Shown here piece after piece: positions 38,644-60,201 of a stretch of DNA of 64,000 bases. The stretch is taken from the NCBI GenBank assembly GCA_026770705.1, contig JANJGN010000026.1:33356001-33420000 (forward strand). Direction: 5' to 3'. How positions within the stretch are numbered: position 1 is the stretch's first letter; each line of letters begins with the position of its first letter. The notes beneath the pieces were generated by a model that worked only from the letters and a program-made list of their open reading frames with translations, was not told the DNA's origin and did not search any database. The DNA comes from Isurus oxyrinchus (Eukaryota). Made by a program: the position numbers and the translations under genes.

Positions 38644-39142
38644 CGCCTCGTCTTCCACACTCAGGCCGCTTATATTGAGATAACCGGACTGTTTAGTCTT
38701 GTCAGCAGCCGCCAGATATCGTCCTGAGATTTCATCTTTTCTCAGTCCTACTACTTTGGTAATTATCCAGCTTGGAGGCTGTGCCGATTTATGCCGATAC
38801 CATTGCATAATGTCTATAGCCTGGTCTGTATATTCGCAATCTAACTGCACCGAACCCCCTTCTGACACGGTTAACATCACTGGGGTCTGAGTTACTGGAT
38901 CGGCACACAGTCCGCCTGTGAAAATAGAGAAACAGAAGAGTATACGGTTAAAGAGGATCCATCTAAACATCTAAATAACTGCGCAAATTCCCATGAACAA
39001 AGCTGTTCATAATATGTATACATCTGCTCGTTAATCCTATTAATTGCTAGTGCAAACCCTTTGCCTCAATCTGCTAATGTGTTTTGATTAACATAATCCA
39101 GTACTTACTGCCCCAGACAGCCGCCAGTATAATCAGAAACAT
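38644..39142 (-). pseudogene. TCR alpha/delta V, 3'-truncated (no YYC, no RSS)
   Basis: Leader MFLIILAAVWG (39142-39109, GTAAGT); V exon from 38915 GLCADPVTQTP...LDCEY...MQWYRH...GLSVEDEA, open until the breakpoint. Confidence 0.92.
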
Positions 39143-40456: not shown

Positions 40457-41000
40457 ATGGGGAACCGTTTCGCTTTTTCCTCATCATTATGTCACTTCTC
40501 AGTAAATATTTCCTTCCCCATGAATAATTCGTTTCTTCTAATTACTGTAACACAGATGTTGTTCTTGACAAAGCAATAATGATGGTGATGGTGATGATTA
40601 TGTTGATCAATATGAGGCTGATACTGATTGTTGTTATTGCTATTGTCTTATGTTAGACTGGAGCCACCAAGACATAGTGGAACTGCCGGTTGCTGCAATA
40701 ACGTTTGACGAGAAAAGTAATAATACAGTAGCTTGCACATTGAAAACAAGCACTGCTAACCATTATGTGTACTGGTACAGTCAGCGCCCCGAGCAGCCTC
40801 CACAGTACATGCTTTATATTCTGGGAGGGAAACCATTCAGAAATAAGGACATCAGTGATCGGTTTTCAGCAATGTTTAATGAAACTGTAAAGATTACCGA
40901 ACTCATGATCAGTAACATCCTGATCTCTGACAGCGCGGTATATTTCTGTGCGATGGACCCCACACTGCTGCAGAGATATAGCGGATACCGTACAAAAACC
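40457..41000 (+). pseudogene. TCR alpha/delta V with open V exon (40657-40960) but out-of-phase leader (ORF or pseudogene)
   Basis: V reads DWSHQDIVELP...VACTL...VYWYSQRPEQPPQYML...SDSAVYFCAMDP. Leader 40457-40501 is 45 nt (phase 0) against a phase-1 acceptor. RSS CACACTG-24-ACAAAAACC. Confidence 0.85.
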
Positions 41001-41810: not shown

Positions 41811-42132
41811 GCAGACTATGCGCACATCCAGTAACTGAGGCACCGGTTGCAATAACGGTGTCAGAAGGGGGTTCGTTGCAGTTAGACTGTGAATATAGAG
41901 AACGGAATATGTACTACATGCAATGGTATCGGCAGCACGACGGCCCAGCCCGCAAACTGGATTATTACCAATATCATAGCACTGAAGAAAGATGAAATTT
42001 CAGGACGATATCTGGCGGCTGCTGACCAGTCTCAAAAGAACGGTTACCTCAAAATCAGCCAATTGAGTGTGGAGGACGAGGCGGTTTATTACTGTGCAGT
42101 GAGGCACAGAGTTAGAATCCTGTAAAACAACC
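41811..42132 (+). pseudogene. TCR alpha/delta V pseudogene (family of 38644-39142); no leader found
   Basis: RLCAHPVTEAP...LDCEY...MQWYRQH, frameshift, ...QLSVEDEAVYYCAVR; CACAGAG-12-AAAACAACC. Confidence 0.9.
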
Positions 42133-42822: not shown

Positions 42823-43754
42823 ATGCGAATCTCCGTTCTCGCTGTGATCTGGGTGACATTCGTTGTCGGCAAGAAATTTAAAACATTTTTAAAGAAGGCT
42901 TCAGTTTCTGGAGGGATAAATATGAAGAAAAAGACTGGGGAATTCATGTTAATCAAGCGCTGGACCTACGTTAGAGTGCACTTAAGTTATTGTCTGCAGA
43001 CTTGGTATCTTCCTTATAAGAAGAATAAAGAAACATAAAACACAGTGTAAAAATTAATTACAATGCTGATGCCAGAATTGAGAGATAATAACTCTCGAAG
43101 AACACTGAAGAGACTGGGCGTATTTCCTCGAGTAATCAGAAGACTGATGGGTAACCGGATAGAGCTCTTTAACATGAGGAGAGGTTTCGATCGGGAAGAT
43201 ATGGGAAAGATGCATACAGTTGAGGAGAATTCCAAAACTTTGGCTCATAAATAAGAGTCACAGAAAGACCCAAAGGGGAATTCATGAGAAACTTCTTTCT
43301 CCTTTAGAATATGGAATTCACTGTCAGAAGGAGGAGATGAGCAAAATTTTCAGTGTCAGTTCTTTTTAGTCGAACTTTTAGTCGATGGTTTCCGTTTTCA
43401 TTAACCGTGTCTTCCAGATCTGATCCATGGAGATTCTGTTACTCACGCCGAATCCTCACAGGCAGTGGGAAAAGATGTCATTTTAACGTGCACCTATACT
43501 GACGATGTTTATTACTATTTCTGGTACCAGCAAGGCCCAGGCATACAGTCCGAGTTTGCAATCTGCAGGCACAAGAGCGGCAGTTGTGAACTGAAGGCAG
43601 ATTTCGCTCAGGACCGGTATTCTGATACAGTCCACCAGTTAGGCAAGTTGTATCGATTGACCATCTCGGAGCTGCAGCTGTCTGACACCACGGTCTATTA
43701 GTGTGCACAGAGTCTCACAGCGATGGAACCGAGCGGAACCCTCGTACAACAACT
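42823..43754 (+). pseudogene. TCR alpha/delta V pseudogene
   Basis: Leader MRISVLAVIWVTFVV (42823-42868, GC donor); V exon from 43418 DLIHGDSVTHAES...LTCTY...FWYQQ...LQLSDTTVY*CAQS with TAG inside YYC; RSS CACAGCG-23-ACAACAACT. Confidence 0.92.
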
Positions 43755-44767: not shown

Positions 44768-45343
44768 TATTTCTGATAATACTGACAGCTGTCTTGGACT
44801 GTCAATGCTGGATTATGTTCATCATTAAAATAAACAAATTAACACATTGATCCAATTGCAGCTTGTACAGGTATTCAATGTTGTTAGCGATCCTGTATAT
44901 GCATATTATGGACAGTTAGGTAGGTGGGAATTTACATAAACGCATACAGCTAAACACAGGTTTAGATCGATCCGGTTTAACCTCCTGGATTTTGTTCCTC
45001 TAACTTCACAGGTGGACTATGTGCAGATGCAGTAACACAGTCTCTGGTGACACTGGCCGTGTCAGAAGGGGATTTAGTGAAGTGAGACTGCGGATATAAA
45101 ACCCTGTATTTATACATCATGTAACAGTATTGGCAGAAACCGGCACAGCCTCCAAGCTGGATCATTAGCAAAGCAGCAGCACTGAAGGGATTGAAAATCT
45201 GAGAACGATATCTGGCTGCTGCTGACCAGGCTGCACAGCCCGATTACCTCAATGTAAGCAGCCTGGGTGTGGAGGACCGGGCGGTCAACTCATGTGCAGC
45301 GAGACACAATGTCAGATAAAATCGAAGAACCCGGACAGTAAGC
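44768..45343 (+). pseudogene. TCR alpha/delta V pseudogene (family of 38644-39142)
   Basis: Leader with ATG>ATA; V exon from 45012 GLCADAVTQSLVTLAVSEGDLVK*DCGY with several stops; RSS CACAATG-23-ACAGTAAGC. Confidence 0.88.
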
Positions 45344-54721: not shown

Positions 54722-55626
54722 AGCAATCAGAATGCCGCCGGCAATATTTTCTTCAATTCAGAGCGACTGCTTAGGAGTAATATTTCTAGGAGACTCAAAA
54801 GGTAAGTAAGATCGATTGTTGTAATTCTATATAGTGATATTACTATAGTTGCTGCACTAGGGTGTACCTCTTTTTATATCACATTACACTGAGTGGTCAG
54901 GATTGATTGTTGCCTGAATATACAATGTGTGAAGGCGTAAGTTTGGTGAGTGAGTGTGTTCAGTGAAGATACAAGTTAATTAATCAAAATAAATGTAATT
55001 CGCTCAATAAAGATGGCAGGAGAGGTGATGTGTCTCGGCTGCAGCATGTGTGAGCTACTGGCTTGCACTGCAATCCATGGCAACCACATAAGACCATAAG
55101 ACTTAGGAGCAGAAGTAGGCCATTCGGCCCATCGAGTCTAGGTCCGCCATTCAGTGAGATCATGGCTATTCTGATAATCCTCAACTCCACTTTCCTGTCT
55201 TTCCACTATCACCCATGATTCACTTACTTACTGTATTTCTCAACCTTGGATATATTTAACGACCTAGCCTCTTTGGTAAACAATTCCACAGATTGACGAC
55301 CCTCTGAGAGAATAGATTCCTCCTCATCTCTATTTTAAGTGGGGGGCCCCATTACTCTGCGATTATGCCCACCCCCACCCCCACCCCCACCCCCCCCCCC
55401 CCCCATCCCACGTCCTAGGAACCCCTGTGCCACTCTGCGTAACATCTGTCGCTTGTAAAATGCTAGAGTCAATTATTAAGGAAGTATTAACAACCTAACT
55501 AGTGTCTTACAAATGTTCAACATGACCTCATTACTCTTTTCCACAATGCCCCTATTAATAAAGCCTAAGATACTGTATGCTTTATTAACTGCTCTCTCAA
55601 CATGCTGTGCCATCTTCAATAGCTTA

Positions 55627-56281: not shown

Positions 56282-56749
56282 ATGGGAATCCTCTTTGTTT
56301 TCACCCTGTGTGTCTGTATACCCCGTGAGTACCGATCAAACAAACCGACATTGTGTGGGTTTAATATAAAGCTGCTCGAGTCCATCCCAATTACAGACAA
56401 TGTCTGCGGGTTTAACCCCGCTCCGTGGTTCGGCTCTGATGGTCCATTACACTCTCTCTGTTTAATTTCCAGGCTCTTTCAGTCAGTCAGTGACACAGAC
56501 CCCAGCAGCGGTGACCAGGAAGGAGTGTCAGTCTCTCATCATCACCTGTGTTTATTATGGTTATTATTATTTACAAAATGGACATTTCTTCAAACAAACC
56601 CAGACCGGGACAGAGTGGGAGAGGATCTCCAGCGGGGAGAGATTTGTTGTGTCGGTGAATAAAGCAGGAAAGACATTTTCGGGACGTGAGAGTTGAAGAC
56701 ACCGCCAACTATTACTGTAAAGCTCAGTACAGATACAACATTGGTTAAT
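56282..56749 (+). pseudogene. NAR-TCR V (IgNAR-like V) with leader; frameshifting deletion in FR3
   Basis: Leader MGILFVFTLCVCIP (56282-56324, GTGAGT). V exon from 56473 reads SFSQSVTQTPAAVTRKECQSLIITCVYYGYYYLQNGHFFKQTQTGTEWERISSGERFVVSVNKAGKTFS/RDVRVEDTANYYCKAQ. The short domain lacks CDR2, and the ERISxGxR..VNK..K.FS and VED...CKA motifs are VNAR-like; extra FR1 Cys. Confidence 0.88.
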
Positions 56750-56777
56750 CACAGAGGAAAAGGCCTGAACAAATAGC
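56750..56777 (+). other. 12-RSS 3' of the NAR-type V
   Basis: CACAGAG + GAAAAGGCCTGA (12) + ACAAATAGC. Confidence 0.7.
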
Positions 56778-57091
56778 TCTGTACAATTAAAATATATATT
56801 CTCCGGGCCCAGATAGTGAATTGTCGGGTTGATGTTATCATCGCTGGAATCTGATTACGTTTTATTGTAATTTCCACCATTCCATTATCTTTCTTTGATA
56901 TTTGTCTCGGTTTATATGAAGCGAACATCTCGTTCCCTGGACCAGTTACTCAGCGCTCAGGGCCTCACAAAGCACAGTGTGAGCCGGCAGACATTTTGAA
57001 ACATTGAATATTGTTTATTTTTTTCAATCCGCTGAATATATGGCAGTATCTAATGTCTGGTGATGATTTCCCGCCAGGTTGAGTTGTCGGT

Positions 57092-57130
57092 GGTTCTTGT
57101 GCCGGGGAGACTGAGAGCAGTGTTACTGTG
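57092..57130 (-). other. 23-RSS 5' of J
   Basis: GGTTCTTGT + 23 nt + TACTGTG (+ strand reading). Confidence 0.9.
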
Positions 57131-57183
57131 GTGGAAATATGATTCTGTGGATGGATCCGGTACGATGTTGACTGTCATAGCCG
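57131..57183 (+). CDS. NAR-TCR J segment
   Basis: WKYDSVDGSGTMLTVIA + G|GTAAGT; GxGT-xLTV motif; phase-1 donor matches the acceptor at 59798. Confidence 0.88.
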
Positions 57184-59798
57184 GTAAGTGACTCCAGCCA
57201 CCCTCCCCCTCACACCTGTTGCGGCCTGTCCTAGCTAATGTTCACCCGCTGCTTTTTATTGTGATCAGCGTCAGTTCAGTCCCACGAAAAGGAAAACAGA
57301 TGGTTTTCATAAGGAAACCTCTCTGTTGGCTTTTTCGATTTGGGGGCAGAATATTATTCAGGAGCCGGGTCGAATGTCTAGGTGAAACTATGTGTGAGAT
57401 CTGTCAGACTAGGCGGTCAACGGGATCAGGGTGGGTGGAGGATGGAGTGTGGGGACGTGAGGGAGGGGATTTTAAGTTTGGAGGAGCATGAGGGTTCGCT
57501 GCATCTGAACCATTATTAGTTTCACTGGTACATCGGGGGCCATCAATCCCTCTGATTCACAATCCTAATCATTTGTAAGTTTGGAATTGCTAACATTTAT
57601 CTCTTTTGAATGTAGATTTTTGAGATACTGGATTGCTTTAATTTATCTGTATCTGTGATTTCTGCAAATTAGAACAACACAGAGCAGTGGGAGAGTGAGG
57701 ATGATGCACTGAACTACTGGAAGGGAACAGGAACATAAGAGAACAATAATCATCGAAATCAAGAGAAAGGTTGGATGATTTCTGGGGGCCGTTCAAAATT
57801 CTTCCTGGCACGAGGGTGGGGGGTGAGGTTTATGGAGGGAAAGGCTGCAATGGGTCCAGTCTGGAATGCTAGGTAAACGCTTGGCCTCTTTGTTAGGGAA
57901 AGATCTAAATCCTTTGGAGTGAGTGCAACAAAGTTTCATCAGACTGATTGCTGAGATAAAGTCTTACGAGAAGAGATTGAGTTGTCTGGGTCTATTTTGC
58001 CCTGGGTTTCGAGGAATTGAGATGTAATCTCATTTGAAACATGTAATATGGAAGACAGGGCAGATTCCCGGTGGATGTTTCCCAAGGCTGGTAAGTCTAT
58101 AAATATGGGTCAAAGTTTCAGAATAAACATTCGGCCATTAGAACTCAGAAGAGGAGAAGTCAAACCATTGTTGTGAGTCTGTACCTCAGAGAGCTTTGGA
58201 TACTCAGTGCTGACTGTACTTAGGACGGTATTCGATAGATCTTTGGATACTAAAAGAATGAAGGGATATGGGGGCACTGCTGTAATGTGATTTTGAGGAT
58301 GGAGATCAGCGACGATGTTATTGAATGGCAGAGCAGGTTTGAAAGGTGCTATAGCGGCCTCTCCATCTCTTTGTTAGGTTCTCTGCTTTGATTTCTTACA
58401 TTCCTGAGAAATGCAATCAGCAACAATCCACGTCTCTCTAGAACGATTGAACAGGCTGGGCCACTTTTCACTGTAAAAGAGGAAACCGAGGAGATATCAG
58501 AGAAACCTTTTAATTATGAATGTGTTCAATCGGGTGGATGTGGAGCAACTGGTAATTTGTGGCTGAGTCCAGAGCAATAGGAGATTATTATAAGGTAGCC
58601 ACTAATTGAACATAAAAGGCATTAAGAAAAATACATTTGCATGAACACGTGTCAGAATGTGGAACTGGAGGTCACATGGAGTGGCTGGAGCAGAGAACAT
58701 TGATAGATTTATGGGAAGACTTCAAAATACAAGAGGAAGAGCGGAATAAACAGGCAGAAGGATGTGGACCGAACTGGTCATTTAGATTTCGGGCAGGAAG
58801 GGCTGGTTTGGAGTGTAAACATAGGCATCAATCAGTTAGGCCGAATGGCCTATTCCTCTTCTGCAGATTGTGTATAATATAAAACCTTCGAGAATACTCC
58901 GCTCAGAGAACCAGGGACAGAATCAGTCAATGAGCGGAAAGAATTGAAATTGTCAGAGAGCCGGAAGAGACAGCTCCCAGTGAGTAACAGGGAAACCACT
59001 GCGGAAACTGAACAGACTGATCCCAACCGACAACTGAGAGAGATTGGGACAAGTTCCCACGATTGCAAAAAGCGCAAACAGCACATTAACGTAAAATAAA
59101 GTGAGAGTAACTGTAAATATTTCAAATTAAAAGGACACGGAGAAATTTGGGCCTTCATGTTAGATGAATATAGAGAAACAGATCAAAAAGTTGATAGAAA
59201 CTCCCGAGCAGTGGTCCACTCCAGCAAATGATTAACCTTTGACCACCTATGTTCACTATCGGTTTGGCCCAATCAGTGCTGATGAATCTCATCAAGTTAT
59301 TATGGATCTTGCTTTGATGCTAAACAGTTCGGTTAGTCTCGGGCAATCATTTTGGAAACTGATTGCTTCGCTGATAATAAAATGTTCCTTCTGGAAAAAT
59401 AGAAACAGAAATGTAATATACATTACATGCTGCACTGCAGTTGAAATCCGGTCCATCCTGTCGGTGCTGCCCCTCTAAAAATGCAACCCAATTATCCCCA
59501 CTACTCTCTTTCCCCGTAGCCCTGTGTTTTTCCATGTTCCAACATTTATCCATTACTCGTTTGGAAAACACCCTTAACCAGTTTTACCGTCTGTTCAGAC
59601 AATGCATGCCAAATAGTAAGAACTCGCTCTGAAACACAAAATAACACCTCATCCTTTCACTGCTTCATACTTCAATAACAGTGAATGAAGTTAAAGCAGG
59701 TTATAAATTAAACAAACTCACCCAAAACCACAGCATCTACTGCGATTAACAAGTTTCCCAGTCTCTAAATAAATTAAGATCAAATTTTTCTCCTGCAG

Positions 59799-60104
59799 AT
59801 TCCAGTTCCATTGTATCCCAGAATCCGCCTGTCCAAACCTCTGCTGTGGGTGACACCGTTACTTTAAGCTGTGAGTATTCAGGTGTCTGTCAGTACACAG
59901 TACACTGGTACCGTCAGTCCCCAGGACAGGCTCCGGATTACTTGCTTCAGAGACATGCTTCAGGAGAAGAGGATAAAGAAAACACTGTTGGGGGGAGAAG
60001 TTCTGCTTCTATCGATCCTGCCGAGAAAATCAGCCGGTTAAATATCTCCAAACTACAACTGAGCGATTCCGCTGGGTATTGCTGTGCACTGAGTCAGCGC
60101 ACAG
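59799..60104 (+). CDS. TRDV: Leaderless supporting TCR-delta V, copy 2 (open frame; YYC>YCC)
   Basis: Near-identical to 1807-2112; lies 2.6 kb downstream of the NAR-type J with no leader in between. Confidence 0.9.
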
Positions 60105-60201
60105 CACAGTGATACAGAGCACGGAGGGTGCCATACAAAAACCTGAACATGGAGGGATTAGACACAGTGATAAAGAACAGGGAAAGAGCTGTACAAAACC
60201 T
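60105..60201 (+). other. Two tandem 23-RSS (60105-60143 and 60163-60201)
   Basis: CACAGTG-23-ACAAAAACC and CACAGTG-23-ACAAAACCT. Confidence 0.9.

Follow-up and report, generated by a model that had tools for sequence, protein, structure and literature searches.

The NAR-TCR of cartilaginous fish was reportedly described by Criscitiello et al. in 2006. Published accounts give it a VNAR-like V, a D and a J segment followed by a supporting V-delta, with two independent rearrangements (PMC6795676, PMC3457774, PMC5931798, PMC12227049). The cassettes of Isurus oxyrinchus share this V-D-J plan with its supporting V-delta, but here V and D are germline-joined at 44 of the 81 loci examined. One of these cassettes lies in the window, by which we mean the whole stretch of 64,000 nucleotides that was analysed (contig JANJGN010000026.1, positions 33,356,001 to 33,420,000), and comparison with its paralogs leads us to regard it as very probably a germline V-D join within a NAR-TCR cassette. 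In the accessible parts of the literature searched, PMC3964593 among them, we found no report of a germline-joined NAR-TCR or of NAR-TCR RSS spacers.

The closest precedents come mainly from immunoglobulin genes. Shark Ig genes carry germline joins with full loss of the RSSs, arising from five independent events and including VD joins in H chains (PMC2193156). The shark IgH VD-J clusters and the joined NS4 light chains of the nurse shark (PMC2193156, PMC5192425, PMC8355894) resemble the present family in their mixture of joined and split paralogs, in complete RSS loss, in several independent events and in later duplication; they differ in being B-cell Ig clusters, whereas a T-cell receptor cassette is concerned here. 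The IgNAR clusters with pre-joined Ds (PMC8692893, PMC4622739) share a NAR-family V, a partial join that restricts CDR3 and RSSs with 22-nt spacers, but in them D1 and D2 are joined within three-D clusters that have their own C exons, whereas here a single D is fused to V, and NAR C exons were not encountered. The V-mu-j of marsupial TCR-mu (PMC7615758, PMC2275272) is likewise a V joined in the germline, within a receptor that has two V domains, but it is a fully joined supporting domain that is thought to have been retroposed; in the window cassette it is the N-terminal antigen-binding V that is partly joined, the leader intron is kept and D-J joining is still needed. The partially germline-joined VH of the opossum and the fused VD pseudogenes of the chicken (PMC2193156) are V-D fusions that also leave a 12-RSS facing a 23-J, but they lie in tetrapod Ig loci. 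Intron-retaining V-D joins of several types, intermingled with their split parental forms at a single TCR locus, would bring TCR genes within the direct germline action of RAG, and the joined and split relatives form close before-and-after pairs with which the events can be dated and any use of joined cassettes examined.

The features of the window cassette are collected in Table 1. Its V can be assigned by similarity to the IgNAR/VNAR family; the best PDB matches of the intact sister L002 are shark VNARs (E 3.9e-17). The leader intron is retained, which argues against retroposition. An 11-nt deletion after 56677, flanked by short direct repeats, shifts the frame ahead of Cys104, and the window copy is therefore a pseudogene. 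The deletion is private to this copy and known from the assembly alone; the missing nucleotides are present in 12 of 12 close sisters and in a contig of public run X1. The first-pass annotation of this DNA had overlooked both the deletion and the YCC of the downstream supporting V.

Table 1. Features of the NAR-type cassette and its supporting V in the window (window coordinates)
Feature	Position	Strand	Remarks
Upstream non-leader exon, 3' end	54770..54801	+	GT donor 54802; joins V exon in germline-configuration sister-copy transcript
Leader exon of NAR-type V, 43 nt	56282..56324	+	Splice 56324 to 56473 in paralog contig, run X2
Leader intron, 148 nt, GT..AG	56325..56472	+	
NAR-type V exon to Cys104	56473..56718	+	Cys codon 56716-56718
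V-derived part of junction, 22 nt	56719..56740	+	Resembles unjoined V tail minus about 2 nt
Probable D remnant, 9 nt, some of it possibly untemplated	56741..56749	+	In-frame TAA at 56746-56748
12-spacer RSS, CACAGAG-12-ACAAATAGC, matching the D segment's 3' RSS	56750..56777	+	Aligned to D 3' 12-RSS of unjoined paralogs
D-J interval	56778..57091		About 79-86% identity to unjoined paralogs; without functional D
23-spacer RSS of NAR J, CACAGTA / ACAAGAACC	57092..57130	-	
NAR J segment WKYDSVDGSGTMLTVIA	57131..57183	+	GT donor 57184
Supporting V-delta exon, open	59799..60104	+	YYC to YCC in window copy
Consensus 23-spacer RSS of supporting V	60105..60143	+	

Thirty-one nucleotides, translating as KAQYRYNIG*, separate the Cys104 codon from the 12-RSS. 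That this RSS, already reported in the first-pass annotation, is real and far above background is supported by two scores. Under a generic definition (CAC start, at most one heptamer and two nonamer mismatches to the consensus) 0.13 such 12-RSSs are expected per 64 kb on both strands (30 Markov simulations) and two are observed in the window; the chance of finding one within 40 nt of the Cys is about 4e-5. A family matrix built from 23 distinct D 3' RSSs scores the site at 23.2, with the runner-up among 127,618 positions at -3.6, although this matrix takes in the spacer and a high score hence reflects homology, not activity. The 23-RSS on the J side is also present as had been described.

The local motifs thus read as a V-12 / 23-J arrangement, a polarity like that of Ig-kappa or TCR-gamma. 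The earlier reading had left two explanations for it, a germline-fused V-D or a natively reversed polarity without D that would insulate NAR from conventional TCR-delta recombination. The paralogs speak for the first and contradict the second. A search of the same genome with the window cassette gave 52 matches; among those scored, at least 28 were colinear with the window and at least 12 were split, V and D-J matching separately on either side of extra DNA between V and the 12-RSS. In all 12 split copies scanned the V is followed by a 22-spacer RSS, the D has a 12-RSS on its 3' side and the J is preceded by an RSS with a spacer of 23 or 24 nt; the D 5' 12-RSS was scored in 11 of them. A second search added 25 further unjoined cassettes once five duplicate loci had been removed, which brings these to at least 37; their V tails measure 16-26 nt and their Ds 11-20 nt, and the two are separated by 363-406 nt. 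The V-side heptamer, an intervening D and the J-side 23-RSS occur in 37 of the 37 unjoined paralogs examined, and the exact pattern of a V end followed by the start of a long-spacer RSS is found at 49 places, against none for a reversed control. The parental order is leader-V-22RSS, about 390 bp, 12-D-12, about 340 bp and 23-J, then the supporting V-delta with its 23-RSS; V-22/23, 12-D-12 and 23-J is the IgH pattern known from mammals (PMC2435157).

Aligned to these cassettes, the window 12-RSS and all DNA 3' of it correspond to the D 3' side, and the window cassette lacks the V-to-D interval together with both facing RSSs, as the earlier reading had allowed might prove the case on paralog alignment. 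Since the unjoined paralogs hold the interval that the window lacks, we take the window 12-RSS to be the 3' RSS of a D and the long tail to be a V-D junction. An expressed-type contig from run X2, which has 32 nt with a D-like core between V and J and is not of the window type, also argues against a cassette built without D, and we regard native reversal as refuted; the apparent polarity is a by-product of the V-D join and requires no new rule. Nor does insulation of two recombination systems hold for the parental cassette, in which the 12/23 rule lets the V-22/23 and the 12-D pair with other 12-D and 23-V segments; rearrangement in trans of IgH V to TCR-delta D has been reported in sharks (PMC12227049). 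Insulation would arise only as a side effect in the joined copies, which lose the 12-D / 23-V pairing option.

In the unjoined cassettes L029-L070 both the V tail, at 16-26 nt, and the D, at 11-20 nt, differ between copies far more than the flanking sequence does, as if the CDR3-coding ends had been diversified in the germline.

Two motifs between the 12-RSS and J had been read as a possible decayed 23-D-12 at 56909-56979, a reading that we reject. The annotation correctly places the CACAGTG at 56973 and GGTTTATAT...ACCAGTT at 56909-56947, but neither is an RSS. The CACAGTG is confined to the 13 window-type copies and lacks a nonamer; at this site 38 of 52 other cassettes read AACAGTT, and the position of the proposed 5' heptamer ends in GTG in none of 65 cassettes. 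The nonamer-like GGTTTATAT (56909-56917) is exact in 41 of 65 cassettes and a perfect nonamer in three of 65, and no copy has a heptamer with it; it is possibly the relic of a lost second D.

What the window junction contains is best judged beside the other joined copies. A third search found 16 further joined loci, so that at least 44 are known, with 19 distinct junction sequences of about six types; contig C26 alone has at least 16 joined and 21 pattern-matched unjoined loci. All joined counts are lower bounds, and they count assembly loci, as the assembly probably holds alternative haplotypes. In three junction types other than that of the window the inclusion of a D can be called firm by alignment. 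The L099/L106 junction holds the whole V tail (22 of 22 nt, one mismatch), 2 nt and a whole D (17 of 17), the 13 joined copies on contig C242 hold the whole D of another type (15 of 15), and the L015-type junction holds 15 of 17 nt of a third D; the L083 junction comprises 21 nt of V tail, 7 nt and a D. The joints of the L099 and L081 types include 2-7 unexplained nucleotides that may be N or P additions, a figure to be read against germline V tails that themselves vary from 16 to 26 nt.

The window type is less complete. In L010, a window-type sister, the V part covers 22 of the 24 nt of the L060 V tail with one mismatch. The last 9 nt of the window junction give a D-versus-V-tail log-odds of +4.2, where 25 true V tails range from -19.4 to -4.8 and 24 of 25 true Ds reach at least +4.8. 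Their best match to any extant D is 3 nt exact, or 7 nt with two mismatches, and the remnant of the related L018 scores -2.7; D nucleotides in the window-type junction are for these reasons only probable. The poor match would suit a hybrid joint, or slippage from heptamer to heptamer, in which the V end was put straight onto the 12-RSS at the 3' side of D, the final 9 nt being untemplated sequence or part of a long V tail; the V and D 3' heptamers of the unjoined paralogs do form direct repeats about 410 bp apart. We think this unlikely, as a tail of 31 nt exceeds the 16-26 nt of 37 of 37 unjoined V tails, the last 9 nt score beyond the range of 25 distinct V tails and three other junction types carry whole or nearly whole Ds.

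A V-D join in the germline is thus our preferred reading, and RAG is its likely agent: in an ancestral germ cell it would have joined V to D and removed the V-to-D interval with both RSSs. We favour this because some junctions are clean coding joints without remnants of the interval and because shark Ig genes provide a precedent for complete RSS removal. An accidental fusion of V and D by RAG-independent deletion, through slippage or microhomology end joining, is conceivable in a family with many small indels, the 11-nt deletion of the window between its short direct repeats among them. Such an accident appears very unlikely to us, given that both breakpoints lie at or within coding ends in all 19 junction sequences, that neither a heptamer nor any 10-mer of the excised interval occurs in any of the 19, and that both ends are untrimmed in L099/L106.

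The window-type junction occurs at at least 13 loci, at 97-100% identity and with the same sequence bar point changes but in divergent flanks; the joined form was evidently duplicated after it arose. Two public runs contain the junction as well, X1 in a contig that covers 56471-57258 and X3 in one that covers 56702-56934. These runs belong to different studies; X3 is possibly the source of the assembly itself and X1 is a different sample. The same junction at 13 loci and in two public runs marks it as germline and not somatic. A somatic origin in the DNA of lymphocytes, or a fault of the assembly, could be entertained only because the assembly tissue is unstated and the 11-nt deletion is known from the assembly alone, and in view of the divergent flanks and the two studies we give it almost no credence.

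The number of joining events was approached through phylogenies built without the junction columns. A tree of 65 rows has four changes between the joined and unjoined states and one of 81 rows has five, three of them forced by strong branches. A single clade of joined copies is rejected (AU p 6e-6 for 65 rows, 1.75e-6 for 81 rows with combined data, in which L085-L088 contribute D-J columns only), and a V-only tree of 77 rows, with L085-L088 left out, also rejects one origin. One origin is not rejected by the D-J interval alone (AU p 0.085), nor is one origin for the window type with L018 (AU p 0.117). Gene conversion among the paralogs could have inflated the origin count and distorted the trees. 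The more direct argument for at least three joining events is that three different Ds lie inside the junctions, and we infer that V-D joining happened several times in this cassette family.

Many of the sister copies appear intact. The V is open in 11 of the 13 window-type copies (one with a weaker leader donor), in L014 and in four of four L015-type copies; the eight L020-type copies, L018 and L028 are broken, and the J donor GT is absent from all 13 copies on C242. Among the 85 codons of the window-type V exons 10 vary non-synonymously and 6 synonymously only, too few to show selection. In a thymocyte, an intact sister copy would have a single step left, the joining of VD-12 to 23-J, which would complete the NAR domain with a CDR3 whose 5' half is fixed. 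Two of the fixed tails translate as AQYRYNI and AQDRWV. Window-type copies would have to lose about 2-3 nt from the D end to remove the in-frame TAA. The broader possibility, which we put forward tentatively and hold to be rather doubtful as a whole, is that at one shark-type TCR-delta locus RAG joined V and D on three to six occasions in the germline, and that two joined families, in which the V is open, the RSSs are usable and the supporting V is intact, were amplified into a pre-built, one-step NAR-TCR repertoire with a semi-invariant CDR3. If so, that repertoire perhaps serves early-life or innate-like gamma-delta T cells.

The run X1 contig starts at the V acceptor and continues into the upstream exon with donor 54802. 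This single contig, at a depth of 5.6 and from a run only guessed to be RNA, is a spliced germline-configuration transcript from a cassette of the window type. A second loose-end motif of run X1 has no match in the window. No rearranged window-type transcript was seen in the contigs of the few runs searched, and a J variant of run X2 is absent from the loci fetched. None of the runs recorded as RNA contains the stretch, which speaks neither for nor against expression, and run X14 gave no match. Two studies (X2, X10) have contigs in which the end of a NAR J, or a V with 75 nt, runs into the beginning of a further NAR V exon (L031:902-1179; window 56470), suggesting tandem NAR-domain transcripts or read-through splicing. 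One NAR domain spliced onto a second NAR V exon may yield four-domain chains.

As in the NAR-TCR of cartilaginous fish, a supporting TCR-delta-type V that takes the J splice lies downstream of the window cassette, and splicing of a NAR J onto the start of such a supporting-V exon was seen in run X2. No leader was noticed for the supporting V; D-delta, J-delta and C-delta are situated outside the window. An open supporting V with a consensus 23-RSS accompanies 11 of the 12 joined cassettes checked; for L114 no supporting V was present within the 2.7 kb fetched. A second, tandem 23-RSS lies 58 bp downstream of the supporting V (window 59780-60201 and 1788-2209; also L013 and L012).

The organisation of the wider locus has further irregularities. 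Joined NAR cassettes with supporting V recur about every 58 kb, and the preceding copy, just before the window, has a 1-nt frameshift. On C242 of genome G000 (about 400-545 kb; L073:6840-9958 and L071/L072) a tandem array consists of an unjoined NAR cassette, about 1.5 kb and a leaderless joined V-D with J; the leaderless form is present in seven copies with a mutated J donor, often followed by another joined cassette. Near HV2, the joined V exons of L099, L100 and L106 carry a G-rich insertion whose length varies; it reflects either an expansion or an artefact of sequencing. Between the cassettes, conventional V segments carry irregular RSSs at 40961-41000, 42105-42132, 43716-43754, 45305-45343 and about 53780, the irregularities being a spacer of 24 nt, a match resembling a 12-RSS that follows the V at 42075, a pair of 23-RSSs and an RSS whose heptamer has decayed; one conventional V near 38644-38917 is inverted.
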